From an uncultured Gammaproteobacteria bacterium (lineage in GTDB: Bacteria; Patescibacteriota; Microgenomatia; Levybacterales; UBA12049), in the NCBI GenBank assembly GCA_964608945.1, contig CAZSQB010000001.1, forward strand, positions 3,211 through 67,210: 64,000 bases of DNA. The letters are read 5' to 3'. Positions 5,944-64,000 of the stretch are shown here, piece after piece (within the stretch, counting starts at the first letter, position 1; each line of letters opens with the position of its first letter). The position numbers and the translations under genes are program-made. Below the pieces are notes generated by a model. The model saw only the letters and a list, made by a program, of their open reading frames with translations, was not told the DNA's origin and made no database searches.

Positions 5944-6000
5944 CATAGTAACCTTACGCAATAAACTCTGCAATAATGATAAATAGTGCATGATTACGCT

Positions 6001-7638: not shown

Positions 7639-7644
7639 CAATTT

Positions 7645-9321: not shown

Positions 9322-9329
9322 AGGCGTTC

Positions 9330-34813: not shown

Positions 34814-34850
34814 CTATAATTTTCAATTTTCAATTTGAAATAAAACTTAA

Positions 34851-35909
34851 ATGTTTAAAACTAAAAATTTAACAATGAAGGTTTTAGTTACTGGCGATAG
34901 AGGCTATATAGGTTCGGTACTTGTTCCGTTATTGCTTAAGAAAAAATACCAAGTTGTCGGGCTTGATTCTGACTTCTTTAAGAATAATCTTGCATTTAGG
35001 GTCCCTGAACCTAAATATAAAAAAATCACAAAAGATATTCGAGATATTAAAGAAAAAGACTTGGAAGGAATTGAAGCTATAATTCATCTTTGTGCTCTTT
35101 CAAACGATCCAATGGGAGAGATTGATCCTGCTCTAACAGAGGAAATAAATTTCAAGTTGAGTATAAAATTGGCAAAACTTGCTAAAAAGCTTGGTGTCAA
35201 AAGATTTTTATTTTCCTCCTCATGTAGTATTTATGGTATTGCAAAAAAAGATTTCGTTGATGAGCAATCTGAGGTAAATCCGCTAACAGCCTATGCAAAA
35301 TCAAAAATTGACACAGAGAAAGAACTCTTAAAGCTTTCTGATAAAAACTTTTGCGTAGGAATTTTGAGAAATTCAACTATATATGGATTTTCTCCAAATT
35401 TTAGAAGTGATTTAGTAGTTAACAACCTTGTTTGTTCTGCTCTTGCATATGAGCGAATTAGCATTATGAGCGATGGCAGTCCATGGAGACCGTTTATTGA
35501 TGTAAGAGATCTTGCTGGGATATTCATTGAGTTTGTAGAAGCCCCTAAAAAGCTCATTAACGGTAAAATAATTAATATTGGTTTTTCAGAAAACAATTTT
35601 CAAGTAAAAGATATTATTTCCACAGTTCAAAAATATGTGCCAAACTGCGAGGTAGTTTATACAGGAGAACACGGAAAAGACACGAGAAGTTACAGGGTTA
35701 ATTTTGCCAAATTTAAATCACTTTTCCCAAAAACCAAGCAAGAATGGAGCCTGGATAAGTCTGTTAAAGACATGGTGGAAAATCTTAAGATGTTAAAGTT
35801 TTCAAAAAAAGATTTTGAGTCGGGGAATTTCACAAGACTAACAATCCTTAAAAACTTAATGTCAAAAAATTTGATAAACTCAAAGTTGTTTTGGATTAAG
35901 ACTAAATAA
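34851..35909 (+). CDS. NAD-dependent epimerase/dehydratase (extended SDR). Candidate CDP-sugar 4,6-dehydratase or epimerase/reductase.
   Basis: MKVLVTGDRGYIGSVLV Rossmann motif, YAKSKIDTEK (YxxxK). An alternative start exists at 34875. Confidence 0.7.
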   Translation: MFKTKNLTMKVLVTGDRGYIGSVLVPLLLKKKYQVVGLDSDFFKNNLAFRVPEPKYKKITKDIRDIKEKDLEGIEAIIHLCALSNDPMGEIDPALTEEINFKLSIKLAKLAKKLGVKRFLFSSSCSIYGIAKKDFVDEQSEVNPLTAYAKSKIDTEKELLKLSDKNFCVGILRNSTIYGFSPNFRSDLVVNNLVCSALAYERISIMSDGSPWRPFIDVRDLAGIFIEFVEAPKKLINGKIINIGFSENNFQVKDIISTVQKYVPNCEVVYTGEHGKDTRSYRVNFAKFKSLFPKTKQEWSLDKSVKDMVENLKMLKFSKKDFESGNFTRLTILKNLMSKNLINSKLFWIKTK

Positions 35910-35914
35910 TTGAC

Positions 35915-36451
35915 ATGAAATATAAACAGACAAAAATTAAAGGAGTATATATTATTACAATTGAACCTAGGGAAGATTCAAGAGGTTACTTCTCTCGGGT
36001 ATTTGCAAAAGAAGAACTTAAAAAGCAAGGTATACCGTACTCTATTGTTCATATTAACAGATCCTTAACGCATGCAAAGGGAACGATTAGGGGAATTCAT
36101 TACCAAACAAAACCTTACCAAGAAGACAAAATAATACAATGTCTTTCGGGCAGGGTTCTTGATGTAGCGGTAGATATCAGGAGGACGTCTCCTACTTTTG
36201 GAAAATGGGTAGGAATTGAGCTTTCGGGAACAAATAAGAAAATGATTCTTATTCCTCGCGGTTGCGCACATGGATTTCAGACGCTTGAAAAAGATTGTCT
36301 TATTGAGTATTTTGTTTCAGAGTATTATGCGCCGGAATATGAAAGAGGAATTCACTGGAAAGATCCATTTTTTAAAATAAAATGGCCAATAAAAAAGGCA
36401 ATTCTTTCAGAAAAAGATCAAAATTGGCCAGATTTTCACCCTGTTAAATAA
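35915..36451 (+). CDS. rmlC: dTDP-4-dehydrorhamnose 3,5-epimerase-like cupin.
   Basis: 178 aa. IKGVYIITIEPREDSRGYFSRVF...GIHYQ...QCLSGRVLDVAVDIRRTSPTFGKW matches the RmlC fold motifs. Confidence 0.8.
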   Translation: MKYKQTKIKGVYIITIEPREDSRGYFSRVFAKEELKKQGIPYSIVHINRSLTHAKGTIRGIHYQTKPYQEDKIIQCLSGRVLDVAVDIRRTSPTFGKWVGIELSGTNKKMILIPRGCAHGFQTLEKDCLIEYFVSEYYAPEYERGIHWKDPFFKIKWPIKKAILSEKDQNWPDFHPVK

Positions 36452-37320
36452 TGAAAATTTTACTTATTGGAAAAAACGGACAACTTGGAGCAGAAATTAA
36501 TAAACAATCAGTTGAAAGAGGATATAGTATTCGTTCTTTCGGACATGAAAGACTTGATATTACAGATAATGAGAAAGTCAAATTAGAAATAGATAAATTC
36601 AAACCGGATGTGATTATTAACGCCTCTGCATTTCATGTTGTCCCGGAGTGTGAAGATAAACCAGACCAAGCTTTTTTAGTAAATGCAACCGCACTTAAAC
36701 CGGTTGCACAAATTTGTTCAGAGCAAAATATAAGATTTGTGCATTTTTCAACTGATTACGTTTTTGACGGACTAACAGGATCGCAATATCTTGAGGAAGA
36801 TAAGCCCAGTCCCGTACAAATGTATGGTATATCAAAAGTAGCGGGAGAATACATTATGCTTGCCTACTCTCAAACAAGCGTTGTAATAAGAAGCTCTGGA
36901 GTTTATGGAGGGGAAAAAGGAAGCAGGTCAAAAAAAGGAAATTTTGCTCTCAATATATTGAAACAAGCAGAAAAAGAGAATGTGATTGAAGTGGCATCAG
37001 AACAGATTGTTAATCCAACTTATGCGTTGGATTTGGCAAAAGCGACATTTGATCTTTTAGAGAGTAAAGACACCAGTGGTATTTACCATTTGGTTAATGA
37101 GGGCTATTGTTCTTGGGCGGATTTTGCGAAGGAAATTATTAAAATTAAAAATATGTCAACAAAAATCATTCCTGTTGATAGAGGAGGATTGGCAGGAACA
37201 CTGCGAAGACCGCTTTTTTCAGCGCTTAAAAACAATCGAGCGGCAAAACTCGGAATTAAACTCCCGATATGGCAAGACGCAATTAAAAGATACTGTCAGA
37301 CCATTAGTAAAGATGAATAA
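36451..37320 (+). CDS. rmlD: dTDP-4-dehydrorhamnose reductase.
   Basis: MKILLIGKNGQLGAE...PDVIINASAF...HFSTDYVFDG...YGISKVAGE. The start overlaps the rmlC stop (ATGA). Confidence 0.8.
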   Translation: MKILLIGKNGQLGAEINKQSVERGYSIRSFGHERLDITDNEKVKLEIDKFKPDVIINASAFHVVPECEDKPDQAFLVNATALKPVAQICSEQNIRFVHFSTDYVFDGLTGSQYLEEDKPSPVQMYGISKVAGEYIMLAYSQTSVVIRSSGVYGGEKGSRSKKGNFALNILKQAEKENVIEVASEQIVNPTYALDLAKATFDLLESKDTSGIYHLVNEGYCSWADFAKEIIKIKNMSTKIIPVDRGGLAGTLRRPLFSALKNNRAAKLGIKLPIWQDAIKRYCQTISKDE

Positions 37321-40039
37321 CAAATTACTTAAGACATTATTGATTCCATTTATAATTACGGCTGTTTTTTTTGTGATCCAAGCTTTTTCCTTAATCAAGG
37401 ACTTTGGATTCTTCTCTGTCATTGAAGAGAATCGGGTTAGTTTTCAAAGAGATAAACCTTTACAGTCGCCTCTCTTAAAGAGTGAAAAAATAGTCGGAAG
37501 ATTTAAAGGTGCAGAGAACAACTTTGGTGTCATACTCTTGAGATTTGTTAAATTTGGGAAAGGTTCGGATACTCTAATATTTAGACTTAAGGAAAAGGGG
37601 AGTAGAGACTGGTATTATGAAAATAAATACGATGGCGAACTATTTCAAAACAATGAATATTATCCATTTGGTTTTCCATCTATTTCTAGTTCAAAGAATA
37701 AGTCTTATCTTTTTGAAATAAAATCAACTTCAGGAAGTGATAAGAATGGTGTTGCTTTAAGCGATGCTAAACCTCAGTTAGCACTAGTTTATACATATTC
37801 CCAAGATCAAATTAGGAATCCTGCATCTCTACTTTCATTCGTTTATAAAAAAATGATCTACGTCATTGGAAACACTAATTATTTGATGATGTTGGGCGTG
37901 TTTTTTCTTTTCTTACTTATTAGGCTTTCAGCAAAGAGAATTTCAAAACTGTTTTTCAAATTTAAGAAAAATCCCAGAAAATTCGCTGATGAAATTATAG
38001 CCGCTATAAATATAAAGAATTTCACCGGGCGTTCTAAAGAGAGAGGGTTCCAATTTAATAAAGTCAAAATCTATCAGTATCTATTAAATACAAATACGAA
38101 GAGAAGAGTATTAATCGCAATACTACTATTTCTCATCGCATTTTTATTTAGATATTCTTCGTCGCTAGTTAATCAGTCTAGCATATTTTATTACACGTTG
38201 GGTGGAGGAGGAGACTATGATCAATTTATGAGAGCATCTACTTGCGCTTTAAATTTTTGTTCGTGGATTATACACCAAAATCTTCTCATTGAATCACTTA
38301 TTTTAGGTTCTTTTTATCAACTTTTTGGATTTGTAGGAGGTCTTAAGACGTATTCACATCTCATGTTACTTCTCTCCTCAATAGTTGCTACTCTTCCATA
38401 TGTCCTTCTTTCAAGGAAGACTTGGTTCTCAATTGGTGGAATTGTGGGCTCATTATTTCTTACAACCTCAGACTTTTTAACTACCGTTGCGTTAAACTTC
38501 CCCCCCGACAACGGATCTGCCTTTATCTTCTCAATGTTCTATATAGTTTATTTGTTGACTATGCATTATGGAACAATTCGTTGGCTAGCAGCTCTGGGGT
38601 TGACAGGATTTTTTGATGGGATGTTTAAAGCATTCTTTCTAATCAATGACCTTGCGGCATTGGCTCTTTTTGCTCCCGCCTTCTTTTATGAGAAAACAAG
38701 GAAAACGGCCCTACCGCGAGCTAAACAGTTAAGGGTAATTCTTAAGCGAAAAAATATTAAAATACTACTTTTAGCTTTATTACCATTCCTAATTTTCTTG
38801 ATTTTGTACTCGGCTTGGGAATATTTTGTGCAAATAAAATTCTCAGCACCCTATTTTCTAAGAATGTTAGTTGAGACTACGGGATCGAATTTCAGGTCTG
38901 AAACGTTATTCTATGATAGAAATTCTGGAAAAGCAGAACAGGATCTCTTACTGCAATTATTTTACCTTTTAATCTCAGGATTAGTTATGATTAAGCGAAT
39001 GATTAGTATCTCTGATTTACAGGTAATTTTTCTAGCGCCAATTTTCTTCGGACTTCTACTCTTTTCCTTTATAAAATCAAGCTCCAAAATTAAACTCTCT
39101 CCTCTAAAGCTCGGTACGATATTCGTTTTTTCGTTTATAAATATCGTTTTACTAGTAAGTGTTAAAAATAATTACTTAGGTATTCATCAAATCTTTCCCG
39201 GAGAATATATTTACGCCAATTGGACTTTAAAGACTTATATCTCTATCTTCCTCTTTGCATCTATAATTTTTCTTTTTATACTAAATTTTAGGTATCAAGC
39301 TTTTAAACTTGCTCTTCCAATAGTGCCTTACGTTATAATGCTTATTATCCTGACCAAGAATGCTCCCTGGGAAAGGCTTTTGGCGCACGTTATTGTATGG
39401 AGTATAATTTTATTTTCCTTCCTTATTGATTGGATTTTAAGCAATACTAAGAAGAACCTGCCTGCCCTGCCTGCCGGCAGGCAGGGCGGCAGGCATGGTT
39501 ATGCATTAAAAAGATTATGGATTGGTCCTATCCTTCTAGTTCTATTCATCTTTTTTTATACAATTCCTAAAACATCGAGTATGGTAGCGCAACTGCGTTC
39601 AGGTATTAACAACACAAGAGGCGAAGTTGAATACTTAAAATGGGTAAACTCAGAATTACCAAAAAATGCCATAATTCTTGCAGGAGGGAAAAGTGATCTA
39701 GTAACTGTTACCGAAAATATAAATAGACCTATTATTTATAATACTTTGTGGTCCACCTCTTTACTAATTCGTCCAAATAGAATTCCTGGAGTATCACCGC
39801 AAGATTTCACTCTCACAGGGGAATTGAGGAATAAAGAAAATTTTAATAAAAAAAGATATTTTGTTTTAGAGAGCGATGTCTATTTATGGAGGGGAAGGCT
39901 TCAAGGTGTAGGAGATAACGTCTTTACAACAGAGCCAAAATCTAATATTGCTCTTCACGCGCAAGATTTCTCAATAAAAGTTTACAAAACAAGTCAAGAA
40001 CTTAATAAAAACATCTATGAGTTGAGACCAAAAGAATGA
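37313..40039 (+). CDS. Giant polytopic membrane protein A (about 908 aa): N-terminal TM, extracytoplasmic beta-rich domain, multi-TM core. Putative GT-C-type glycan polymerase/transferase.
   Basis: The ATG at 37313 overlaps the rmlD stop by 8 nt; the ORF-track start at 37076 is an in-frame read-through of rmlD. Colinear homology with 42253..45111 throughout (KGAENNFGVILLRF / KASENNFGILLFRF, GGDYDQFMRA / QGDYDQFIRA), with about 167 aa of 100% identity near the C-terminus. Confidence 0.7.
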   Translation: MNNKLLKTLLIPFIITAVFFVIQAFSLIKDFGFFSVIEENRVSFQRDKPLQSPLLKSEKIVGRFKGAENNFGVILLRFVKFGKGSDTLIFRLKEKGSRDWYYENKYDGELFQNNEYYPFGFPSISSSKNKSYLFEIKSTSGSDKNGVALSDAKPQLALVYTYSQDQIRNPASLLSFVYKKMIYVIGNTNYLMMLGVFFLFLLIRLSAKRISKLFFKFKKNPRKFADEIIAAINIKNFTGRSKERGFQFNKVKIYQYLLNTNTKRRVLIAILLFLIAFLFRYSSSLVNQSSIFYYTLGGGGDYDQFMRASTCALNFCSWIIHQNLLIESLILGSFYQLFGFVGGLKTYSHLMLLLSSIVATLPYVLLSRKTWFSIGGIVGSLFLTTSDFLTTVALNFPPDNGSAFIFSMFYIVYLLTMHYGTIRWLAALGLTGFFDGMFKAFFLINDLAALALFAPAFFYEKTRKTALPRAKQLRVILKRKNIKILLLALLPFLIFLILYSAWEYFVQIKFSAPYFLRMLVETTGSNFRSETLFYDRNSGKAEQDLLLQLFYLLISGLVMIKRMISISDLQVIFLAPIFFGLLLFSFIKSSSKIKLSPLKLGTIFVFSFINIVLLVSVKNNYLGIHQIFPGEYIYANWTLKTYISIFLFASIIFLFILNFRYQAFKLALPIVPYVIMLIILTKNAPWERLLAHVIVWSIILFSFLIDWILSNTKKNLPALPAGRQGGRHGYALKRLWIGPILLVLFIFFYTIPKTSSMVAQLRSGINNTRGEVEYLKWVNSELPKNAIILAGGKSDLVTVTENINRPIIYNTLWSTSLLIRPNRIPGVSPQDFTLTGELRNKENFNKKRYFVLESDVYLWRGRLQGVGDNVFTTEPKSNIALHAQDFSIKVYKTSQELNKNIYELRPKE
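39251..39751 (+). repeat. Copy 1 of a perfect 501-bp direct repeat inside giant membrane protein gene A.
   Basis: Base-for-base identical to 44275..44775 on manual alignment (offset 5,024 bp). Flanks diverge immediately on both sides. Confidence 0.9.
39457..39495 (+). repeat. GC-rich near-perfect palindrome (CCTGCCTGCCCTGCCTGCC|GGCAGGCAGGGCGGCAGGCA) in-frame within gene A, encoding LPALPAGRQGGRH.
   Basis: About 77% GC over 39 nt in an approximately 30% GC gene. The arms are reverse complements of each other apart from a single base. Confidence 0.8.
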
Positions 40040-42252: not shown

Positions 42253-45111
42253 ATGAAGCACTTTAAATTATTTATCATTTCATTGTTTTTGGTATTTGGA
42301 TATTTAATATTGATTTCGTATCCTTATTTTTTTTCCAAGATTACGCGTTTTGATTCACTCGGACCTCTTTCATTAGTGGAAGAAAAATCGGTAAATATCC
42401 AAAAAACGTTCAGTCCAGACCGCAGAACCGATCAATTTGACAATCACTTGCTTAAAGGAGAAAAGGTCACTGTTAAACTTAAAGCTTCCGAAAACAATTT
42501 TGGTATTTTATTGTTTAGATTCGCGCAACTATCTGACAATGTAACAGATACGGTTGTTTTTAGAGTAAAAGAAGAAGGAAAAGAATGGCACTATGAAAAT
42601 AATTATAAGGCAAACCAATTTCAGCCAGATCAGTATTTTACTTTTGGTTTTCCTCCTTTTAAAAATTCCAAAAACAACACCTACGTTTTTGAGATAGAAT
42701 CTCTTTCAGGCACATACAAGAATGGAATTGGGGTGAGTTTGAGAGAACCGCAAGTCGCGTTAGTTTATAAATACACACGAGCCGATCTAACGAATTTTAA
42801 TACGCTTTTCCCTTTTATTTTTAAAAAATTTGTTTATGTAGCAAGAAACGTAAATTTCCTTCAAGATAGGCAGTTATTTATAATATTTTTTTCGTCATTT
42901 CTTTTTACTCTTTATTTGAAAAATAAAAGAAAAATAAAATTGCCAAAGCCTAAAAAGAAGTATCGTAAATTTTTAAAAATGGTTGTCGGTGAAATAATCT
43001 TCGATTATGTATTATTTGAAAAGAAGCTATTTAAACCTTTAAAAAAATCAGTCCTCAGATTTACCAGATCCAAATTTTATTTAAAATACTTAGATACAAA
43101 TGCTAAAAAAAGATTAGCAATTGTTTTATTAGTATTTTTAATCGCGATTCTTTACCGATTTTCCGCAGCTTCAGTTGATCAATTAGGTGTGTTCTCATTT
43201 TATGCGGGTTTAGGTGGTCAGGGTGATTATGATCAATTTATAAGAGCTGCAACATGTGCAGTAAGAAACTTTTGCCCTGCCATCTTAGGACAAAACTTTC
43301 TTATTGAATCATCTATCTTAGGGACGTTTTACGAAATATTCGGATTTGCGGGGGGACTTAAAGCATATCTATATTTCATGATTATTCTAAGCTCAATTGT
43401 TGCTACTCTTCCTTACGTTCTTTTGTCTCGAAAACACTTTATCACAATAGGTGGAATAATCGGCAGTCTTTTTCTTGCAACTTCAGATTATTTAACTCAT
43501 ATGGCCCTTAATCTTCCACCAGACAACGCGTCTCTATTTGCCTTCTCAATGTTCTTTATAGTTTATCTAATTACGATTCATATTGGAACCATTCGTTGGC
43601 TTTTATTTTTTGGCTTGATAGGTTTAATAGATGGATTAAATAAATTATTATTATTAATAAATGATTTAGCAGTATTTATGCTATTTGTTCCGGTTTTCTT
43701 CTATGAAAAGGCAAATAAGACTAAGAAGTTTCCTTTTGTTAAATTAAACCCAAAATTGATCTTCTATTCTATACTGCCACTTTTAGTTTTCCTCGTGATT
43801 TATTCGGCATGGGAGTATGTTGTACAAATGAAATTCTCAACTCCCTACTATTTGAGAGCATTGATAGAAGGAGGTTCTACCTATCAATCATCCACTGACG
43901 CAGGATCTATGTCCATCAATGAAAGTCTTTCACAAGGCAATATATTGGAAAAATTATTTTATTATGCAGGATTGTCTGTCGTTATGCTAAAACGAGTAAT
44001 TCAGAATGCTGGTCTTAATGATATCTTTCTTATTCCCATTTTATTCGGTTTATTATTCGCGACTTTCAGAAAGTCCCCATTCGATGGATTCGACAAGCTC
44101 ACCACAAGTAATCTCAGGGCAAGAAAATTTTCTGTCACGAAATTAATATCTATGGTAATTTTTGCAAGCCTTGCTTTTACGACCCTACAATTATTCAAAG
44201 AAAACTTTCTGGGCATACAAGATATTGGACAATATGTCTATGCATGGTCCAATGATATTTATGTTAATGTATTTCTCTTTGCATCTATAATTTTTCTTTT
44301 TATACTAAATTTTAGGTATCAAGCTTTTAAACTTGCTCTTCCAATAGTGCCTTACGTTATAATGCTTATTATCCTGACCAAGAATGCTCCCTGGGAAAGG
44401 CTTTTGGCGCACGTTATTGTATGGAGTATAATTTTATTTTCCTTCCTTATTGATTGGATTTTAAGCAATACTAAGAAGAACCTGCCTGCCCTGCCTGCCG
44501 GCAGGCAGGGCGGCAGGCATGGTTATGCATTAAAAAGATTATGGATTGGTCCTATCCTTCTAGTTCTATTCATCTTTTTTTATACAATTCCTAAAACATC
44601 GAGTATGGTAGCGCAACTGCGTTCAGGTATTAACAACACAAGAGGCGAAGTTGAATACTTAAAATGGGTAAACTCAGAATTACCAAAAAATGCCATAATT
44701 CTTGCAGGAGGGAAAAGTGATCTAGTAACTGTTACCGAAAATATAAATAGACCTATTATTTATAATACTTTGTGGACAGCGGCGTTACTGATTATACCAA
44801 ATGAAATTCCAGGAGCAAAACCCACTGATTTTGCTATATTAAATCAGTTGAAAATCAATGAGATACCAGGAGTAAGCCCAAGTGATTTTAGTATAATACG
44901 GGAGTTGAGAAACAAGGATAATTTCGGGAAAAACAAGTATATGATTTTAGAAGATGACGTTTATATATGGCGAGATAGAGTAGCAGGAGTAGGAGATAAT
45001 CTTTTTTCTACATCTTCTGCTGCGTTGCTTAATGGAGAGGATTACTTAATCAAAGTCTATAAATCCAATCCAATTCTAAAAAAAGCTATCTACGAATTAA
45101 AGCTTAAGTAG
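42253..45111 (+). CDS. Giant polytopic membrane protein B (952 aa). Paralog of 37313..40039.
   Basis: Same domain order as protein A. Carries the second copy of the 501-bp identical segment. Confidence 0.7.
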   Translation: MKHFKLFIISLFLVFGYLILISYPYFFSKITRFDSLGPLSLVEEKSVNIQKTFSPDRRTDQFDNHLLKGEKVTVKLKASENNFGILLFRFAQLSDNVTDTVVFRVKEEGKEWHYENNYKANQFQPDQYFTFGFPPFKNSKNNTYVFEIESLSGTYKNGIGVSLREPQVALVYKYTRADLTNFNTLFPFIFKKFVYVARNVNFLQDRQLFIIFFSSFLFTLYLKNKRKIKLPKPKKKYRKFLKMVVGEIIFDYVLFEKKLFKPLKKSVLRFTRSKFYLKYLDTNAKKRLAIVLLVFLIAILYRFSAASVDQLGVFSFYAGLGGQGDYDQFIRAATCAVRNFCPAILGQNFLIESSILGTFYEIFGFAGGLKAYLYFMIILSSIVATLPYVLLSRKHFITIGGIIGSLFLATSDYLTHMALNLPPDNASLFAFSMFFIVYLITIHIGTIRWLLFFGLIGLIDGLNKLLLLINDLAVFMLFVPVFFYEKANKTKKFPFVKLNPKLIFYSILPLLVFLVIYSAWEYVVQMKFSTPYYLRALIEGGSTYQSSTDAGSMSINESLSQGNILEKLFYYAGLSVVMLKRVIQNAGLNDIFLIPILFGLLFATFRKSPFDGFDKLTTSNLRARKFSVTKLISMVIFASLAFTTLQLFKENFLGIQDIGQYVYAWSNDIYVNVFLFASIIFLFILNFRYQAFKLALPIVPYVIMLIILTKNAPWERLLAHVIVWSIILFSFLIDWILSNTKKNLPALPAGRQGGRHGYALKRLWIGPILLVLFIFFYTIPKTSSMVAQLRSGINNTRGEVEYLKWVNSELPKNAIILAGGKSDLVTVTENINRPIIYNTLWTAALLIIPNEIPGAKPTDFAILNQLKINEIPGVSPSDFSIIRELRNKDNFGKNKYMILEDDVYIWRDRVAGVGDNLFSTSSAALLNGEDYLIKVYKSNPILKKAIYELKLK
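44275..44775 (+). repeat. Copy 2 of the perfect 501-bp direct repeat inside giant membrane protein gene B.
   Basis: Identical to 39251..39751. Confidence 0.9.
44481..44519 (+). repeat. Second copy of the GC-rich palindrome (inside the 501-bp repeat).
   Basis: Same 39-nt sequence as 39457..39495. Confidence 0.8.
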
Positions 45112-55074: not shown

Positions 55075-55813
55075 TTATTTGATTACCGGTTCTGGAAGTG
55101 GTCTAGGTAAGTATTTTCATGATCAATTAGGGGGGACTTCCTTTAATAGAGATTTTGGGAATGTCGACGAAACAGAAGTACTTATTCATTGCGCTTTTAA
55201 TCTAGCAAGAGAAGTTAATTCCAAAGATCTTTACCAATACCTTCTTGATAATTTTTTTTTAACAAAAAAATTAGCTATAATTCCCCATAAAAAATTTATT
55301 TACGTATCATCAGTGGATGTGTACCCAAAAAATAACAAAAAACATTCTGAAAACGAAATAATAGATGTCAATCAAATATCTGGTTTTTACGGGGTAACCA
55401 AGCTTATGTCAGAAAGCCTAATTCAAAATCTTTGTCCGAACTTTTTGATACTAAGATGCTCAGCACTTCTTGGGAAGGATGCACGCACAAATAGTTTGAA
55501 AAAAATAATAAGAGAAGAGAATCCTACTTTAACTTTATCTTCCGAATCTGTATTCAATTTTATTTTACACAAGGACGTTTTAGAATTTGTAAAGATAGCA
55601 ACTGAAAAAGATCTACAAGGAGTATATAATTTAGTATCATCAGAAAATATCACCCTTTTCCAAATAGCAGAATTACTTGGAAAAAAAGTTAGCTTTGGAA
55701 GTTATATGTACAACGTAGGAGAAATAGATAATAAAAAGGCTTCTTTGGTGGCTTCGTCTTTTAAAAAGACCTCGCGGGAGATAGTAATTGAATTCATGGA
55801 TTTAATATCATGA
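55043..55813 (+). CDS. Short NAD-dependent epimerase/dehydratase-like protein (divergent SDR).
   Basis: YLITGSGSGLGKYF Rossmann motif, YGVTKLMSE (YxxxK). 256 aa. The start overlaps the upstream gene by about 30 nt and may lie further downstream. Confidence 0.5.
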   Translation: MNPNLKRKKSNYLITGSGSGLGKYFHDQLGGTSFNRDFGNVDETEVLIHCAFNLAREVNSKDLYQYLLDNFFLTKKLAIIPHKKFIYVSSVDVYPKNNKKHSENEIIDVNQISGFYGVTKLMSESLIQNLCPNFLILRCSALLGKDARTNSLKKIIREENPTLTLSSESVFNFILHKDVLEFVKIATEKDLQGVYNLVSSENITLFQIAELLGKKVSFGSYMYNVGEIDNKKASLVASSFKKTSREIVIEFMDLIS

Positions 55814-56472
55814 AAACGACTCTTTTTATCCCAACTTTAAATGAAATAGACGGCATGAAAGCTATCATGCCGCGCGTAAAAAAACAGTGGGTCGATGAAA
55901 TCTTGGTGCTCGACGGCAACTCTTCGGACGGCACGGTAGAATATGCTAAATCACTGGGCTATCGAGTCGTCATGCAAAAATCAAAAGGCATCACAAATGC
56001 TTATCGTGAAGCCTTAAAAATCGCTAAAGGCGACATCATTGTGGCTTTTAGCCCGGATGGAAATTCACTGCCAGAGGTCATACCCGAACTGGTCCGGAAA
56101 ATGAAGGAAGGTTACGACATGGTAATCGCCTCCCGGTACATAGGGGGAGCAAAAAGCGATGATGATGATCCGGTCACGGCTTTCGGTAATTGGATGTTTA
56201 CAACATTAATCAATATAGCTTTTGGTGGGAACTATACGGATTCGCTTGTAATGCTCCGAGCATTTAAGAAAGATATCGTTCAAGAACTTCACATCGATGT
56301 TCCGCGGGCCGGAATGGAACCGATTCTATCGATTCGATGCGCCAAGCAAAAACTAAAAGTCGCCGAAATTCCGGCCTCTGAGCCCAAACGCATTGGCGGC
56401 ACACGCAAGATGAATCCCCTTTTAAACGGCTTGGATATTCTCCGCTTGATCTTTGCGGAGCTGATGCACTAA
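55810..56472 (+). CDS. GT2 polyprenyl-phosphate sugar synthase (GtrB/ArnC/DPM1-like, short form).
   Basis: TLFIPTLNEIDGMK...ILVLDGNSSDGT...AFSPDGNSLPE. Noticeably GC-richer than the flanking genes. Confidence 0.75.
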   Translation: MKTTLFIPTLNEIDGMKAIMPRVKKQWVDEILVLDGNSSDGTVEYAKSLGYRVVMQKSKGITNAYREALKIAKGDIIVAFSPDGNSLPEVIPELVRKMKEGYDMVIASRYIGGAKSDDDDPVTAFGNWMFTTLINIAFGGNYTDSLVMLRAFKKDIVQELHIDVPRAGMEPILSIRCAKQKLKVAEIPASEPKRIGGTRKMNPLLNGLDILRLIFAELMH

Positions 56473-56543
56473 CCCAGACGCAGAAAAAATTCTAATCTGT
56501 GCCGCCGCCGCTATGTATTGCGCATTTCCAATTTTTAGGTATA

Positions 56544-58937
56544 ATGATCCAATTGGAGATTATAGGTTTAAGGAAATTAAAAAGGGCAAACAAAATTCTT
56601 GCTTTGATCGAGAATCGGCCATGGATTGTTTTTGTCGCGCTTTTAGTAGTCATCCTCTTTTTATTCCGCGGACTTTTTAATTCGTATTTTGAAGCGGATG
56701 AATGGTTTCATTTTACATATTACTTTCCGCTTACAAAAAGACCCGATGGGTTTTTAACAGCAATAATATCGACAATTATTAACTCGGGTCCCTTATCCGC
56801 GGGACAACATGTTGTTCCCGTTGCTTCCGCAATATATTTCCTGAATACAAAATTTTTTGGCATGAATTATGCACCTTATGCGTTTATGTCTTTGTCTCTT
56901 CATGCAGTAAATAGCTTTTTGGTATTCGTATTTATAAAAACTTTGTTACATAGAAAAGATATAATAACTAAAAATGTTTTCGCGCTTCTAGGCGCTGTTT
57001 TTTTTGCTCTTTCTCCACAGCATTCTCATACAATAACAGGCGCAGCCCCGTTTTACGGTCAGAATATTTTGTCTGTGACCTTTTTCCTATTATGTATTAT
57101 TTCATTTAAGCTTGCATATCTTCGTGAAAATAAAAAATTCATATACCTTTCTATACTTTTTCTTTTCTTATCACTTTTCACTAAGGAAACGGCAGTCTTT
57201 CTTTTTGTGCTCCTTCCGTTTATGGCTATAATCGAAAAAAAGGGTCTGCCTGCCAGCAGGCCCCGCACCGCTCTGGTGCAGGGCAGGCAGGTTTTTCCTC
57301 TGAAATTTTTAGGTAAACTGTTCATCCTAAGTTTAATTATATATGCGACATTTAGATTTTTAGTTCCGAATATTTATTATGGTGTTGGCCCGCTTGTTGA
57401 CAAACTAGTTGGAAATTATGTTTCGTCATCACTTCCGTCTTGGCAACAGCAGTCGCGCGAAACACCAAAAGTTCCTGATACTGGAACAATTGTTAGCACC
57501 GATCTTTCGATTCACAAGAATCTTCTGGGAGAAATTTTGTTTCGCAGCGTGACTTTTCCTGTAAAAATGACAGGAACTCTTTTTTTGCCAAGACAAACAG
57601 TATTTTCTATTGTCCAGTTTATTACGCCAATTGTTCAACCTGTGCCGCCTGGTGGAGATAGCGCGGATATGTCTCAAGCCCGACTTACATTTTTGTACGG
57701 TCCGGGAAATGGCTTCATTATTTACATAGTAGGTATTGGTATTATTATTTTTTGTGCAAGAGAGTATTTTAGCTTTGTTCGAGGGAAAAAGATAGAGGAG
57801 GCAAGAACACTCGCAACAGGATTTGCAATGATTGTTTTAAGCTCGCTGCCTTTGGTTGCAATTATATTTTCCTTTCCTCGTTGGGGATATGATTTTTATT
57901 TTGACTCGCGGTTTTATTATAATCCCAATGTCGGCGCGGCTATTATTTTCCCGTTTTTACTCTTGGGTTTTTCGGAGTTTATTTCCAAATCGTTTCAAAA
58001 GAAGACAGTTGTTCCCCTGATAGCTTTTACACTTTTCACTCTTTGGCTGATTAATAATATTGCTGTACTAAATGTAAGTATCAGGTATTTCACCCAGAAT
58101 TTTCAACCGGATCGACGGGAGGTCGTAGAACAGTTGAAAAAATATCTTCCAAGCCTTCCTAAGATTACTGTTTTCTATATTGAAACAGATGGTCTGAGTG
58201 CTTATGGTCCGAGTCTTCCATTTCAGACAGGCGTTGCCCCAGCGCTTAGCGTAGTTTATTATGATAACAACCCCTTACCGAATAGTTTTTTTAATAAACC
58301 ACTTTTTGATGGCAAGAAAGAAGGTTATTTATATTCGCAAGGTCGTGGATTTGGATATTATATATCTAAGAAGACGCTTGCAGAAGCGCTTCTTGCAAGT
58401 AAATTTAAGGTTTCTGATATCCGCGCTTTTTACTATAAAGCACAAGATGTAAAACTTATCGATACAACAGGCGAAGTTAGGGCAGAAATGGATAGCTATC
58501 TTACAGCTGCAAAAGAAAATTCTGATTGGAAAAACTACCTTGATCTTTCAACAGGGTTATCATTTTATTACCCTTCTCAAGCGGATATAGAAGAAGTGCC
58601 GCAAGATAGCGCGCAAAGCACAGCAACGTCGTTTGCAATTATTAGTCCAATATTTACCATAAGAATGACAATTTTCAATGTAACGCCTGCTTTTGCAGTG
58701 AATGAATACTCACAAATTCTGACAAACGGTAAATTAGGTATTGTTAATTCGCGAAAAGTTTCATATGATAAGTTTCATTATAATGACAGCCTAATTGTAA
58801 ATAACAATGGAAAAATTGAGTATTTAATTAAGCTTAATGATAGGTTAATAATAGTTGAAACAGAAAACCAGGACGCTGAGTCAATTTTAGCAGTAGAAAA
58901 GATTGCAGGTTCAGTTGAAATTATTAAGAAAGAATGA
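56544..58937 (+). CDS. Large GT-C-like membrane protein (about 797 aa) with a C-terminal extracytoplasmic domain. Probable partner transferase of the upstream GtrB-like GT2.
   Basis: FRGLFNSYFEADEWFHFTYYFPL (DE-type loop motif) and many TM segments. ATG at 56544 has AGGT 6 nt upstream; the track's 56499 start is less likely. Contains the GC-rich palindrome at 57246..57290. Confidence 0.65.
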   Translation: MIQLEIIGLRKLKRANKILALIENRPWIVFVALLVVILFLFRGLFNSYFEADEWFHFTYYFPLTKRPDGFLTAIISTIINSGPLSAGQHVVPVASAIYFLNTKFFGMNYAPYAFMSLSLHAVNSFLVFVFIKTLLHRKDIITKNVFALLGAVFFALSPQHSHTITGAAPFYGQNILSVTFFLLCIISFKLAYLRENKKFIYLSILFLFLSLFTKETAVFLFVLLPFMAIIEKKGLPASRPRTALVQGRQVFPLKFLGKLFILSLIIYATFRFLVPNIYYGVGPLVDKLVGNYVSSSLPSWQQQSRETPKVPDTGTIVSTDLSIHKNLLGEILFRSVTFPVKMTGTLFLPRQTVFSIVQFITPIVQPVPPGGDSADMSQARLTFLYGPGNGFIIYIVGIGIIIFCAREYFSFVRGKKIEEARTLATGFAMIVLSSLPLVAIIFSFPRWGYDFYFDSRFYYNPNVGAAIIFPFLLLGFSEFISKSFQKKTVVPLIAFTLFTLWLINNIAVLNVSIRYFTQNFQPDRREVVEQLKKYLPSLPKITVFYIETDGLSAYGPSLPFQTGVAPALSVVYYDNNPLPNSFFNKPLFDGKKEGYLYSQGRGFGYYISKKTLAEALLASKFKVSDIRAFYYKAQDVKLIDTTGEVRAEMDSYLTAAKENSDWKNYLDLSTGLSFYYPSQADIEEVPQDSAQSTATSFAIISPIFTIRMTIFNVTPAFAVNEYSQILTNGKLGIVNSRKVSYDKFHYNDSLIVNNNGKIEYLIKLNDRLIIVETENQDAESILAVEKIAGSVEIIKKE
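57246..57290 (+). repeat. Third GC-rich imperfect palindrome (CTGCCTGCC...GCACC...GGTGC...GGCAGGCAG) in-frame, encoding LPASRPRTALVQGRQ.
   Basis: The outer arms CTGCCTGCC / GGCAGGCAG are identical to those of the 39457 and 44481 elements. The sequence context is also the same (KK-x-LPA ... GRQ). Confidence 0.7.
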
Positions 58938-59611
58938 AGAAAAATAAAAAGAATTTTGAGAAATATTACTTTGAGGGATATTACAAAGGGATAGGGGATT
59001 TTAGTGTCAAACGAGATCGCGAGCTTTCAAATTGGTTTCGCGGGATGCTCGAATACATTAATAAATTTTATCCTATAAAGAATGGTAGAGGTAGAAAGTT
59101 AATTGAATTTGGTTGTGCAACAGGAGCAGCCGCAAATTTACTTGCCGATTATGGATTTAGTGTTTTCTCAAGCGATGTATCAAAATACGCTGTAAATTTA
59201 GCAGCGAAAAATTATCCGGATATAAAATTCATCGTCCATGATATGCAAAAACAATTCATGAAGGATGAGAATTTTGATGTAGCCGTTGCATTTGATGTAA
59301 TAGAACACTTGAAAGATCCAGAAATGTCTCTTAGGAATACTTATAAGATATTAAAACATGGTGGGACTATAATTCTAACAACACCCAATGATTACAAACA
59401 CATGTCAAATGATCCGACCCACATAAGCGTCAAGAAGCCTAATGAGTGGAGAAAAATTATGAGGAGGGTTGGCTTTAAGAACATTATGATTAAGCAAGTT
59501 GCATTTATTCCTTATTTTTACAGATTCCACTGGAGGTTGAATTACGCACTGCCGATAGCAATTTCATCGCCTTATGTAATTTCACCGGTTGTAATTATTG
59601 CTAAAAAATGA
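58934..59611 (+). CDS. Class I SAM-dependent methyltransferase.
   Basis: KLIEFGCATGAAANLLADYGFSVFSSDVS...FDVAVAFDVIEHL...LKHGGTIILT. Confidence 0.7.
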   Translation: MKKNKKNFEKYYFEGYYKGIGDFSVKRDRELSNWFRGMLEYINKFYPIKNGRGRKLIEFGCATGAAANLLADYGFSVFSSDVSKYAVNLAAKNYPDIKFIVHDMQKQFMKDENFDVAVAFDVIEHLKDPEMSLRNTYKILKHGGTIILTTPNDYKHMSNDPTHISVKKPNEWRKIMRRVGFKNIMIKQVAFIPYFYRFHWRLNYALPIAISSPYVISPVVIIAKK

Positions 59612-62600
59612 GAAAAAGAATTATTTTTGATCTTATTATCATATTCATTATTGGTTGTCTTCCTATTCTTTGGTTTAGAGACGGTTCGATTCTTTTAGGA
59701 CATGATGCGGGACTTGCGCTTGATCCGATCATGCATTTTCTTGACCGTATACATGTTTGGTCTCAAAGATTTAGTCTTGGGACAGATCAGAACGGAGCGC
59801 TCCTTGGAGCCTTCGCGATTCATGGATTCGAGGCTTTGCTCGCGTACTTAGGTTTCAATTTACACTGGGGTCAAATAATACAATTCATAGTTTGGTTTAC
59901 GCTACCAGGGCTCGCAATGTACTTTTTTGCTTCAAGAACTTTCCCGGACAAGACATATCTTCCGCTTATTGCATCCATCATTTACATGTTGAATTTTTAT
60001 CTTTTGCAAGGGTGGTTTATTGCCGAGCGTACCAAATTCTCAATTTATGTTGCATTTCCACTAGTTTTGTATTTTTTGATTATATATTTAAGAAAAAAAA
60101 CAAGTTTTCTTACGACTGTCGTCGTAACTGGAATTATACTTGGAGTATTTAACGGAGGAGGAAGTTTGCCCCTATATGGAGGACTTGCTCTTGGGGTTCT
60201 TCTTGTTTTTGTTTATATAAACGCAATTAACTTAAACTTGGAAACGGTCAGGAGGACTATTTTCTATTCAGTGGGGGTCTTCTTCTTCTATATTCTTCTA
60301 AACGCTTATTGGGTTATTCCCTATGCATTTTACCTTTTCGGTTTTGCAAGTCGTGATTTGGCAATAGCGGGTGGGACAGAAGGAGCTCTATCATGGGCAA
60401 GGTATCTATCTTCAGGGTCAACATTCATCAATTTATTCCGGGGACAGGGAATACCCGATTGGTATCTTAACCCTTACCACGCTTATTCAGCGGGGTATCT
60501 TTCAAATCCGATCCTAATAATCTCCTCATTTCTTTTCCCAATTCTAGCATTTGCATCTTTCTTAATTCAAAAAACAAGAAAAGAAGCATATATCATTTAT
60601 CTTATTTTTCTAATTTGTTTGGTCGGAATACTATTTTCATCGGGTCCAGAATCTCAATTCGGTTTTATCTTTGAGTTTATGGTGAACTATGTTCCCGGAT
60701 TCGCAATCTTTAGATCTGCATTTTTCAAATTCAACTACATGGTATGGTTTTCATACGGACTTCTCATTGGGTTCACGCTTGACCATATACTTTCGCGTAT
60801 TGAATTTAAATATTTCAAAAAAAACGCACTTGCCTTCTCAAAAATTAGCTTGCTCTTATTCGTTGTTCTCTACGTGTTCTACCACCAGCAGGTTTTAAAT
60901 GGTTCTTTTCTCGATTATTCCAAAGAACCCGGTAAAGAATTAACTACTCGTATCAAAGTTCCCGATTATATATTTGAGTTTGGAAAATGGGCAAATCAGC
61001 AGGATCCAAACGTTAGATTTCTTGTAATGCCTCAACTTGGGAATACAAGCTATATCTCTTATGATTGGCATTACTGGAGTATTGCTCCAGTTACTAGTTT
61101 GCTTTCAATAAATTCATTCGTTCATAATACTGCACTTGTTCCTGAGAGCGAAAGGGTACTTATGAGTGAAATGTACGCAGCATTTTTGCGGGGAGACATG
61201 GAAAGTTTTTCTGACTTTACTGAAGTTTTCGCTATTGATGCTATCGTACTTCAAAAAGACTATGATTGGAAGAATCCTTCCTGGGGTACTGTAAACCCGG
61301 AAAAATATGAAGAAGTCTTAACGTCTCATCCGGAATTATTTATTCGCGAAAAGACATTTGGAAGATGGAATGTGTATAAGATTGCAGAAAGGACACAATC
61401 TTTAAGAATAAATTCCAGCACAAAACTAAGTTTTCTGCAAGGAAAACTGGGCAAAGTTGTTTCATTTCCATTCTTTGCTCCTAAAACTCCATTGTTCATG
61501 AGTGATGTTGAGCAGAAAAATATTGACTATTACGCCCAAAACGCCAGCGATATGTATCTGGCGCCTGAATGTATTCAATGTGATCTTGAATATAAAGAAG
61601 AAACATTTAAATATTATAATCCTAAGCTTCTTCCTGGATCAATTCTATATCCCATCATCGTTTTACGTGAGCAGCAAGTCAAAGCTTTATCGCGTGACTT
61701 TTTGTCCCTTATCAATTTCTATATAACAGCTTCAAATAGAAGAATCACTGAGATTAAATGGATGGTTGATACAAAAAATAGAATAGAGCAAATACTTCCA
61801 ACAATTGAAAGGTATAGACAAACTCTGCGAGAACTTGCACAAGAACTAAAACAAAAAGATAGCGCCATAATTGAGAACAGAGCAGCACAGAGGGTAATGA
61901 ATAATATTATCCAGCAAGTAAACCTTATTGACTCAGTGTATAGCGAACCAATAATGAGCATTTACCAACGTCAAGCGCTGTCTCAATCCTACAATGAAAT
62001 TACTGAGATTGAGAGACTCGCAAAGGAGAAAATGTGGGTAACAGAGGACATGACGAATAAAAGATATATCTATGACCTTCCTCTTACGGGAGAGTATGAA
62101 ATATATGTAAAGCGCGGAAGCTTGACGAATCACGTGAGCGATCCCAAAGAGACAACCATCACATTCAAAGATTCACCGAATGTCTTAAAACCCATTACAA
62201 CAGTTGGTGACTGGCTATCATTTGGAAAGATTAACCTGACTAATAAAAAAACTTTTATAGGTCTAAAAGATGGAACAATGGCAAATCTGATTGATTCTAC
62301 ATCTCCTACTTTTCTAGATGGGAAAGAGGGGATAATTGTGGATAAAAATAATGTGACCTTTACAGTTGATAGTCTAAATAAATGTTTTTATTATCAATTC
62401 CATGATCTTGAATATTTAAATACTCAATATGTTGTCTCCTTCTCCTACAGGAATTTCTCAGACAAGAATACTTTAAGTTTCTTCAATCAAGCTGAGGGAG
62501 ATGAGTTCTTAAGGTACAGCGCAAAAAACTCTTCACTTGCAAGTTTTAGATATCTTAATAAATTTATCAAGTTAATTACACCAAAAGACGGAAATGTAAG

Positions 62601-63114
62601 ACTCGTTTTCTGTAATGGATTTTTATCAATAAATGAAATCGGCAATTTCCAGAAACAATTTGACGCTGATCTATTACCGGGAAGCCAAACATTAATCGAA
62701 ATTAAAAATATTACCTTTCATAAAGTAGCTTATCCTAATATTGTTTTTTATAAAAAACAGAAAGATGTGGATGATTCAAATACTGTTCAAAACTTTGTTA
62801 AAAAAGACCCTGTTACGTATGAGGTAGATTTGGCAAAAAATAATACTCCGGCTTCTCTTATCATGCGCGAAAGTTTTGGAAAATATTGGAGAGTATGTGA
62901 TGAGAAAAGTGTTTGTCTTCCATTTGGTGATCAGTCACATTTTCAGACCGGAGGTTTTGCAAATGCTTGGTACTTAAAAGATCATTCTCTTGGTGAGAAA
63001 TTAACAATTTATTATTATCCCCAAAGATGGTATGAAATCGGAACAATTATTACCATTGGTTCTATCGTGGTAATATTAGGAGGAGTATGTTTACGTTTAT
63101 TTATAAGAAAATAA
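59608..63114 (+). CDS. Giant membrane protein (1168 aa): N-terminal multi-TM GT-C-like domain, extracytoplasmic region of about 750 aa, C-terminal TM anchor. AftD-like architecture.
   Basis: LGHDAGLALDPIMHFLDRIHVWSQRFSLGTDQN... in the first loop, then about 12 TM segments, a long hydrophilic region, and a terminal IGTIITIGSIVVILGGVCL helix. Confidence 0.6.
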   Translation: MRKRIIFDLIIIFIIGCLPILWFRDGSILLGHDAGLALDPIMHFLDRIHVWSQRFSLGTDQNGALLGAFAIHGFEALLAYLGFNLHWGQIIQFIVWFTLPGLAMYFFASRTFPDKTYLPLIASIIYMLNFYLLQGWFIAERTKFSIYVAFPLVLYFLIIYLRKKTSFLTTVVVTGIILGVFNGGGSLPLYGGLALGVLLVFVYINAINLNLETVRRTIFYSVGVFFFYILLNAYWVIPYAFYLFGFASRDLAIAGGTEGALSWARYLSSGSTFINLFRGQGIPDWYLNPYHAYSAGYLSNPILIISSFLFPILAFASFLIQKTRKEAYIIYLIFLICLVGILFSSGPESQFGFIFEFMVNYVPGFAIFRSAFFKFNYMVWFSYGLLIGFTLDHILSRIEFKYFKKNALAFSKISLLLFVVLYVFYHQQVLNGSFLDYSKEPGKELTTRIKVPDYIFEFGKWANQQDPNVRFLVMPQLGNTSYISYDWHYWSIAPVTSLLSINSFVHNTALVPESERVLMSEMYAAFLRGDMESFSDFTEVFAIDAIVLQKDYDWKNPSWGTVNPEKYEEVLTSHPELFIREKTFGRWNVYKIAERTQSLRINSSTKLSFLQGKLGKVVSFPFFAPKTPLFMSDVEQKNIDYYAQNASDMYLAPECIQCDLEYKEETFKYYNPKLLPGSILYPIIVLREQQVKALSRDFLSLINFYITASNRRITEIKWMVDTKNRIEQILPTIERYRQTLRELAQELKQKDSAIIENRAAQRVMNNIIQQVNLIDSVYSEPIMSIYQRQALSQSYNEITEIERLAKEKMWVTEDMTNKRYIYDLPLTGEYEIYVKRGSLTNHVSDPKETTITFKDSPNVLKPITTVGDWLSFGKINLTNKKTFIGLKDGTMANLIDSTSPTFLDGKEGIIVDKNNVTFTVDSLNKCFYYQFHDLEYLNTQYVVSFSYRNFSDKNTLSFFNQAEGDEFLRYSAKNSSLASFRYLNKFIKLITPKDGNVRLVFCNGFLSINEIGNFQKQFDADLLPGSQTLIEIKNITFHKVAYPNIVFYKKQKDVDDSNTVQNFVKKDPVTYEVDLAKNNTPASLIMRESFGKYWRVCDEKSVCLPFGDQSHFQTGGFANAWYLKDHSLGEKLTIYYYPQRWYEIGTIITIGSIVVILGGVCLRLFIRK

Positions 63115-63485
63115 TCAAAATTTACGATCAAGCGTCTATATTTGTTCGTGCAAACACTACGCAAATAGTTATTATTGTTGGCACATTTGTTTTTTTTGAA
63201 GTAATTCAGTCATTTCCATATATAAATATTGTCCCCAACTATCAGTTTTTAGTAATAGGTTTTACACTTCTCTTATCTATGGTCTTACTTAGAGTTTCTA
63301 TTTCTAATAAAAAAATAATGCTGGCTGTATTAATTCTTTTCTTTCTGGCCGCAATCATAACAATATTCGACATTAAACGTATTTTAGACCTGATCGGATT
63401 TATAATCTTCGTTCTAATAGCGCTCGTTGTAATCCGACAGATTATAAATGATCGAGAAAAACTGAAAAAACTCGATCTAGAATAA
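63087..63485 (+). CDS. Small membrane protein (3-4 TM), function unknown.
   Basis: 132 aa, hydrophobic. Overlaps the end of the giant gene by 28 nt, so the start is uncertain. Confidence 0.4.
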   Translation: MFTFIYKKIIKIYDQASIFVRANTTQIVIIVGTFVFFEVIQSFPYINIVPNYQFLVIGFTLLLSMVLLRVSISNKKIMLAVLILFFLAAIITIFDIKRILDLIGFIIFVLIALVVIRQIINDREKLKKLDLE

Positions 63486-63531
63486 GTGAGAAATAATGCA
63501 CCTATCCTCCTGCCCATTATAATTTTATTGC

Positions 63532-64000
63532 ATGAAGAGAAGAATTTTTTTTGATCTTGCCCTCATCTTAATTCTAGGGCTTATTCCGCTGTTGTGGCTT
63601 CCAAATGGCACAATTATCTTAGGGCATGACGCCGGATTAACATTGGATCCGGTAGCAAATTTTTTAGATAGACTTTATGTTTGGACCCAAAGATTCGGAA
63701 TAGGAACAGATCAAAGTTTTGCGCTCCTCGGAGCATTTTTGATTCACGGGCTTGAAGCATTCCTCGCATACATCGGACTTAATCTTCACTGGGGACAAAT
63801 AATCCAATTTATTTTTTGGTTTGTTTTGCCAGGATTAACAATGTACTTTCTGGCATATAAGCTCTGGCCGGAGAAAAGATATTTGCCTCTGATTGCCGCA
63901 ACCGTCTACATGATCAATTATTATCTCGTTCAGGCATGGTTTATTGCTGAGCGTACAAAATTTTCAATTTATGCAGGATTCCCAATATTTTTATATTTTC
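63532..64000 (+). CDS. Tandem paralog of the 59608..63114 giant membrane protein, 3'-truncated by the window end.
   Basis: Reading from the ATG at 63532 gives MKRRIFFDLALILILGLIPLLWLPNGTIILGHDAGLTLDPVANFLDRLYVWTQRFGIGTDQSFALLGAFLIHGLEAFLAYIGLNLHWGQIIQF, colinear with the N-terminus of the preceding gene. Confidence 0.7.
   Translation, partial: MKRRIFFDLALILILGLIPLLWLPNGTIILGHDAGLTLDPVANFLDRLYVWTQRFGIGTDQSFALLGAFLIHGLEAFLAYIGLNLHWGQIIQFIFWFVLPGLTMYFLAYKLWPEKRYLPLIAATVYMINYYLVQAWFIAERTKFSIYAGFPIFLYF

Follow-up and report, generated by a model that had tools for sequence, protein, structure and literature searches.

Tandem AftD-type GT-C membrane glycosyltransferases within a conserved gene cassette of Microgenomates-group Patescibacteria

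Two adjacent genes at the right end of a 64,000-nucleotide stretch of contig CAZSQB010000001.1 (hereafter the window), from a bacterium of the candidate phyla radiation (CPR, Patescibacteria), encode large membrane glycosyltransferases of the GT-C class. Here, we compare them with AftD, the mycobacterial alpha-(1->3)-arabinofuranosyltransferase (PDB 6W98, 6WBX and 6WBY; Pfam PF11847, formerly DUF3367). As judged by profile matches and predicted structure, both are AftD-type GT-C enzymes, atypical for AftD; they are diverged tandem paralogs, each followed by a gene for a small protein with four transmembrane (TM) segments. We consider it likely that the pair transfers a polyprenyl-phosphate-linked sugar onto a surface glycan outside the cell, and that sugar need not be arabinofuranose.

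Fold and domain layout of the AftD-type proteins

The first gene (copy 1) is an open reading frame (ORF) of 1168 amino acids (aa) and, like the first-loop motifs quoted for it, was found as the original prediction had described it. A hydropathy scan and an AlphaFold model agree with the proposed multi-TM N-terminal domain (aa 1-431) and single C-terminal TM segment (helix 1138-1167); the extracytoplasmic region between them comprises about 705 residues (432-1137) rather than the 750 or so first estimated. The features of the two genes and of the small gene between them are as follows.

59608..63114, + strand: AftD-like GT-C copy 1, 1168 aa (ORF list, motif match)
59608..60900, + strand: copy 1 aa 1-431, 11-TM GT-C membrane domain (AlphaFold secondary structure, invariant columns)
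60940..61587, + strand: copy 1 aa 445-660, soluble alpha/beta domain of the GT-C super-domain (hhalign, HMMER alignment to 6w98)
61630..62037, + strand: copy 1 aa 675-810, DUF5667 long helical bundle (PF18915, model helices)
62050..63018, + strand: copy 1 aa 815-1137, region of beta-sandwiches resembling carbohydrate-binding modules (CBM-like; predicted structure, hhalign)
63019..63111, + strand: copy 1 aa 1138-1168, single C-terminal TM anchor equivalent to AftD TM12 (model helix 1138-1167, hhalign)
63087..63485, + strand: small four-TM protein, 132 aa, overlapping the 3' end of copy 1 by 28 nt
63532..64000, + strand: AftD-like GT-C copy 2, first 156 aa (MKRRIFFDL...), running past the window end

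Family profile, fold and colinear profile matches all bear out the AftD-type reading. When searched against PF11847 (GT-C_AftD), as had been suggested, both copies exceed the cut-off of 26 bits by a thin margin (27.8 bits for copy 1 and 33.3 bits for copy 2), and a precomputed PF11847 match is present in most homologs. The AlphaFold2 model, built from an alignment of 74 family members (A1; 28-83% identity, 45 invariant positions), has a mean predicted local distance difference test score (pLDDT) of 89.3 and a predicted template-modelling score (pTM) of 0.80. In a Foldseek search of the PDB three AftD cryo-electron microscopy entries come out on top (E=8e-19 to 4e-17; template-modelling score about 0.45 over the whole chain), followed by STT3 and ArnT, which places the N-terminal domain in the GT-C fold. 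Hallmarks of AftD are apparent in the model: loop 1 contains two juxtamembrane helices, TM3 is broken, the loop after TM7 (EL4) is long, and the 11 TM helices are followed by a soluble alpha/beta domain. The soluble region was also searched for the CBM-like beta-sandwich modules that an AftD-type GT-C should carry in a large extracytoplasmic part; these are present, as is re-entry into the membrane through a TM12 equivalent after the last beta-sandwich. A family profile ranks AftD first among PDB sequences (E=0.5), and neither phmmer of copy 1 against PDB sequences nor hmmscan of copy 1 against NCBIfam gave a match. An active site on the outer face of the membrane is suggested by the positive charge at the N-terminus together with the odd number of TM helices and the analogy to AftD.

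Residue-level comparison drew on Mycobacterium abscessus aftD, which agrees with the PDB fragment at 100%, together with 53 mycobacterial homologs, all from a metagenome scan. Profiles were aligned with hhalign in local mode, and MAFFT was used to align the CPR family jointly with 27 AftD sequences from mycobacteria. Three colinear hhalign matches were recovered, and the registers in loop 1 and the soluble domain are also backed by HMMER.

CPR aa 36-73 with AftD 42-78: loop 1 (hhalign E=0.095)
CPR aa 450-586 with AftD 435-567: soluble GT-C domain (hhalign E=4e-4)
CPR aa 1072-1168 with AftD 1194-1284: last beta-sandwich and TM12 (hhalign E=1.8e-4)

Residues invariant in both families (CPR/AftD numbering) are W51/W57, G58/G64 and H72/H77 in loop 1; G281/G268, W285/W272, R369/R357 and K374/K361 in the TM domain; and P452/P437, Y454/Y439, W487/W469 and D551/D535 in the soluble domain. 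W272 is 100% conserved in AftD (bioRxiv 10.1101/2019.12.22.885152). Loop 1 of copy 1 (aa 23-84) contains the invariant H32-D33, D46-R47 and W51, and E140, R141 and K143 are located at the TM3-TM4 junction; H32-D33 is peculiar to the CPR family, as are E140/R141/K143, whose columns read S/S/T in AftD.

There are several departures from AftD, with which the CPR proteins share 10-13% identity alone. A helical bundle without an AftD counterpart is inserted (DUF5667, PF18915, 28.1 bits against a cut-off of 27, match spanning aa 674-763; model helices 681-808), and the CBM region is shorter, its last sandwich being homologous to the one that precedes AftD TM12. Copy 1 ends one or two residues beyond the TM12 equivalent; because the protein stops where AftD TM12 ends, it lacks the TM13-16 module, the part that binds acyl carrier protein in AftD, and the gene is instead followed by that of a separate, translationally coupled four-TM protein. 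The hosts also differ, being Patescibacteria here and Actinobacteria for AftD, and the decaprenyl-phospho-arabinose pathway is not encoded in the 64-kb window.

An extracytoplasmic CxxC motif (C655 and C658 in APECIQCDL; window 61570..61581) is invariant in all 74 aligned members, and C926 and C1002 of copy 1 are nearly so across the family; these cysteines may form disulfides or a metal site. Elsewhere in the window, 17384..17911 encodes a stand-alone protein of 175 aa with a sub-threshold DUF5667 match (23.6 bits, cut-off 27).

The two copies and their four-TM partners

Copy 2 had been recognized from its beginning at 63532, with an N-terminus colinear with that of copy 1, and the 156 residues within the window are indeed 67% identical to copy 1 without gaps. 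Extension of the contig, which had been proposed for recovering the rest, was achieved with Logan contig L001, a second public assembly record whose origin from independent reads is not established. L001 has no mismatch to the window in the 7801 nt of 56200..64000, continues beyond the window end, and supplies the complete copy 2 gene of 1170 aa, which would end at window-equivalent position 67044. The two proteins are 48% identical from end to end, and at the DNA level blastn aligns just two long stretches at about 66% identity.

The original prediction had itself raised the concern that copy 2 might be an assembly artefact, a misassembled duplicate of copy 1. The tandem arrangement speaks for this and nothing further, whereas the 48% protein identity and the sparse DNA alignment exclude it. 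The identity of L001 over 7.8 kb that include both copies also argues against it, subject to the caveat on its reads, as do orthologous pairs in at least three other metagenome-assembled genomes (MAGs), and we give it practically no credence. Orthologs of both copies are found at L002, L003 and L004/L005, and L006-L008 have a single copy equidistant from both. By these comparisons the tandem duplication is lineage-specific and old, and the copies are diverged tandem paralogs.

All 45 family-invariant residues are retained in both copies, and the divergence is unevenly distributed, with 56-57% identity in the catalytic super-domain and 36-37% in the helical bundle and first beta-sandwich. This pattern fits a difference in acceptor recognition with the same chemistry, and the two enzymes probably make different linkages or act at successive steps, by analogy with the tandem EmbC/A/B enzymes. 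EmbC, EmbA and EmbB of mycobacteria are large GT-C enzymes that carry CBM-type domains at the C-terminus; their genes are diverged paralogs in tandem, and the enzymes act at different wall-glycan steps. The CPR pair is similar in its size, GT-C class, CBM-type domains and tandem divergence, but Emb proteins belong to a different GT-C family with 15 TM helices and have no small coupled partner gene, and no sequence relationship between EmbC/A/B and the CPR family was detectable in this analysis.

The 132-aa ORF at 63087..63485, between the copies, was absent from the original prediction. A Shine-Dalgarno-like sequence, AGGAGGAG, can be read ahead of its ATG. A paralogous ORF of 130 aa follows copy 2 (27% identity, E=3e-14), so that each large gene has a four-TM paralog behind it and the duplicated unit comprises two genes, one big and one small. 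In the 45 genome loci that were fetched, with 47 big genes, a small four-TM homolog stands directly after 41 of the 47, often with a 4-nt overlap. The members of this partner family have 105-135 aa and four TM segments, the size of a GtrA protein, and their charge distribution suggests an N-in/C-in topology. Co-duplication of the small ORF with the enzyme favors a specific physical or functional pairing.

Database searches with the partner were negative: 24 diverse members match no Pfam family, with no hit to GtrA or another flippase family at E<=1, no match to the PDB was found, and there is no profile similarity to AftD 1285-1410 (TM13-16; E=0.73). The AlphaFold2 model of the small ORF is weak (pLDDT 65, pTM 0.33). 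Two assignments were considered and set aside. Identity with the AftD TM13-16 module has neither profile support nor a fused form – the longest family members (P0241, P0328 and L031) include no big-plus-small fusion – which leaves an analogy of position and topology; for a GtrA-type flippase or a GacJ-like helper, neither Pfam nor the PDB gave support. Size and four TM segments would nonetheless fit either a detached TM13-16 equivalent or a GtrA-like donor flippase. A more speculative proposal, which we regard as unlikely, is that of a split AftD, in which the four-TM partner would be the regulatory TM13-16 module of AftD as a detached, translationally coupled subunit that co-duplicates with its enzyme. 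If this were true, enzyme and partner, with the PMT-like GT-C and methyltransferase described below, would build a new, complex wall polysaccharide, possibly methylated or furanose-containing, that is characteristic of the Microgenomates.

The conserved cassette and a proposed route of sugar transfer

Three genes to the left of copy 1 bear on its function.

55810..56472, + strand: GT2, 220 aa, without a TM segment (Pfam Glycos_transf_2, E=1.5e-20)
56499..58937, + strand: multi-TM protein of 812 aa (start uncertain; 797 aa in the Logan call), the conserved first gene of the cassette
58934..59611, + strand: S-adenosylmethionine (SAM)-dependent methyltransferase, 225 aa (Pfam Methyltransf_23, E=6e-23)

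The segment 56499..64000 is one tightly packed unit consisting of the 812-aa protein, the methyltransferase, copy 1, the small ORF, a 46-nt gap and copy 2, with the methyltransferase stop overlapping the copy-1 start (ATGA at 59608-59611). Scans for promoters and terminators performed no better than on shuffled sequence. Immediately upstream are genes for a DegT aminotransferase, three NAD-dependent epimerases/dehydratases and the 220-aa GT2. In 36 of the 45 loci the gene immediately before the AftD-like gene codes for a methyltransferase homolog, and in 28 loci a homolog of the 812-aa protein stands just before the methyltransferase. On this synteny, a PMT-like GT-C, a SAM-dependent methyltransferase, an AftD-like gene and a small protein form a conserved Microgenomates cassette.

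The 812-aa protein of this organism has no Pfam match, and two of 12 orthologs weakly match PMT_2 (5e-5). It has a nearly invariant F64..D67-E68-W69 right after TM1, recalling the catalytic loop-1 'DE' motif of PMT-family GT-C enzymes, and is a probable PMT/ArnT-like GT-C. A third AftD-like copy was considered and rejected, the protein having no significant BLASTP match to copy 1 and none to the family HMM. The solved-structure relatives of the GT2 are all polyprenyl-phosphate sugar synthases (dolichol-P-mannose synthase, DPMS, 5mlz, E=1e-14; ArnC, 8e-8; GtrB, 5e-4), making it a candidate polyprenyl-phosphate sugar synthase that would supply the lipid-linked donor; homologs occur in 24 related loci at variable distances.

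We propose the following route. Aminotransferases, dehydratases/epimerases and the coupled SAM-dependent methyltransferase, cytoplasmic enzymes encoded in the locus, would tailor a nucleotide sugar, which the GT2 at 55810 would load onto polyprenyl phosphate. The lipid-linked sugar would then be flipped to the outer face of the membrane, where each AftD-like enzyme would transfer it to a growing cell-surface glycan. Transfer would be performed by the 11-TM GT-C domain together with the soluble alpha/beta domain, with R369 and K374 binding the donor phosphate and D33 (loop 1) and E140 serving as acidic or catalytic residues, and holding the glycan acceptor would fall to the helical bundle and the CBM-like beta-sandwich modules. 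Each enzyme would presumably work with its own four-TM partner, which would be either a membrane subunit or a donor flippase. The analysis shows the homology, fold, domain layout, duplication history and conserved synteny; the donor type, the residue roles, the acceptor and the division of labor between the copies are inferences.

Several points weigh against this proposal, the active site among them. The residues essential in M. abscessus AftD are K39, D41, E251, K361 and D474 (bioRxiv 10.1101/2019.12.22.885152). K361, which corresponds to the invariant K374, is the sole one retained in the CPR family; the joint alignment shows the other four not to be conserved. K39 aligns with the invariant D33 and D41 with the invariant G35; E251 aligns with a variable position (F244), in a part where the register is less certain; and D474/E475 align with I492/A493, the D474 column being I or L in the family. 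The alignment of the TM domain, at about 10-13% identity, may also be locally wrong. Because four of the five essential residues are unconserved, the catalytic assignment of D33 and E140 comes from conservation and position alone. Moreover, the family members are known from sequence and predicted structure alone, the GT2 has no TM segment and is next to the cassette in the closest relatives only, 24 diverse partner proteins did not match the flippase families GtrA, SMR, MATE or Wzx, and the acceptor could be a protein. We infer that a shared donor-phosphate site, R369/K374, is combined with a re-arranged acidic or catalytic constellation, such that the sugar, the linkage or both likely differ from those of AftD.

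The same loss of AftD-essential residues would be expected if the proteins were non-catalytic, membrane-anchored glycan-binding or scaffold proteins whose transferase activity has been lost. We think this very improbable, since the 45 invariants across 74 members cluster in loop 1, the TM3-TM4 junction, EL4/EL5 and the soluble domain, as is typical of an active site under purifying selection, and the K374/R369 pair is common to AftD.

At the other extreme, the pair could be true arabinofuranosyltransferases, in which case a CPR bacterium would be making an arabinan-like polymer from a decaprenyl- or polyprenyl-phospho-arabinofuranose donor. A Pfam search of all window ORFs of at least 150 aa, plus the 132-aa ORF, found neither a UbiA-type polyprenyl-phosphate phosphoribosyltransferase nor a DprE1-like oxidase, and so the decaprenyl-phospho-arabinose route is not encoded in the 64 kb, the sole part of the genome seen. 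The adjacent donor-forming enzyme is a DPM1/ArnC-type GT2, and other residues occupy the AftD active-site positions D41, E251 and D474; we therefore rate true arabinofuranosyl transfer as quite unlikely.

Protein glycosylation (of an S-layer or pilin, for example), with the pair acting as oligosaccharyl- or O-glycosyl-transferases, would accommodate the STT3- and ArnT-type structural matches. These matches reflect the shared GT-C core, whereas the resemblance of the full-length fold, soluble domain and TM12 region is to AftD specifically, and the CBM-like sandwiches suggest a carbohydrate acceptor. Transfer to protein thus appears unlikely, and we favor transfer to a surface glycan.

Distribution, related systems and the surrounding locus

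Members of the family occur in Patescibacteria of the Microgenomates group (Levy-, Roizman-, Davies-, Gottesman-, Woese- and Dojkabacteria), and some Parcubacteria also have them. An exhaustive profile search recovered 9,499 representatives of 50%-identity clusters at E<=1e-3, and 1,920 at E<=1e-30. The original prediction had called such transferases uncharacterised. This holds for the literature, in which searches on DUF3367, on AftD with CPR and on Patescibacteria with GT-C found nothing relevant; yet the family is already annotated automatically in public databases, where some members are named 'DUF3367 domain-containing' or 'arabinofuranosyltransferase family protein'. Because the active-site residues differ from those of AftD, the latter name is probably wrong for the CPR proteins. 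Many MAG records with the Patescibacteria-type cassette (L003, L008-L010 and others), which are third-party annotation (TPA) assemblies, are titled 'uncultured Gammaproteobacteria bacterium', which looks like a default or mistaken taxonomic label.

A shorter AftD-like paralog of about 610-700 aa (alignment A4) often follows the small ORF in the same cassette, as at L002 16741..18564, L003 9116..10978 and about 25 other loci. Its GT-C super-domain, last beta-sandwich and C-terminal TM segment are homologous to those of the large proteins (hhalign probability 99.9%, E=5e-31), but the helical bundle and the first beta-sandwich region are missing from it. No such paralog lies downstream of the pair described here, where L001 has a minus-strand DegT gene instead.

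The locus resembles multi-component transmembrane glycosylation systems such as GtrA/GtrB/Gtr*, CsbB/GtcA/YfhO and C. youngae ORF15/14/12, in which a GT-A enzyme loads polyprenyl phosphate with a sugar, a small membrane protein flips the product, and a GT-C, often with a CBM, attaches the sugar to a surface polymer outside the cell (PMC8035078, PMC11127046). A GT2, a GtrA-sized four-TM protein and a GT-C with a predicted outer-face site are all present. The CPR locus differs in that its small protein has no similarity to GtrA, SMR, MATE or Wzx, its AftD-type GT-C has roughly double the usual size, and its cassette adds a methyltransferase and a second, PMT-like GT-C.

The 64-kb window as a whole is an unusually GT-C-dense glycan locus for a small-genome bacterium. 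At least 10 more GT-C-type genes (PMT_2, PMT, YfhO and PTPS_related) lie at 4273..15544, 19017..20657, 23765..25105 and 26630..28363, among them four tandem paralogs at 4273..10997 with 27-40% mutual identity and a YfhO-like pair at 12490 and 19017 (32% identity). Two further pairs have no Pfam match: giant multi-TM proteins at 37076..40039 (987 aa) and 42253..45111 (952 aa), 61% identical over about 700 aa and with two GT2 genes in between, and proteins of about 505 aa at 25102..26625 (+) and 29416..30930 (-), 38% identical over their full length. The segment 45173..51907 encodes a SIS-domain isomerase, a GHMP kinase, a 4,6-dehydratase, a DegT aminotransferase, an epimerase and a two-subunit thiamine-diphosphate E1-type enzyme, at a GC fraction of 0.42-0.45 compared with about 0.35 elsewhere in the window, and might serve to make a branched or keto-modified (heptose-like) sugar. 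A dTDP-rhamnose-type set (RmlA-like nucleotidyltransferase, 4,6-dehydratase-family gene, RmlC and RmlD) is at 34025..37320, and since it is in the same locus rhamnose may be a component of the glycan.

CPR/Patescibacteria cells live attached to others and their envelopes are biochemically almost unknown; surface glycans likely mediate this contact. An enzyme type known experimentally from the mycobacterial arabinan pathway alone heads a family of about 9,500 50%-identity clusters, and comparison across this family should help to separate the AftD features at the core of catalysis (K361, R357, W272 and the soluble-domain W469/D535 are shared) from those that are lineage-specific (D41, E251, D474 and TM13-16).

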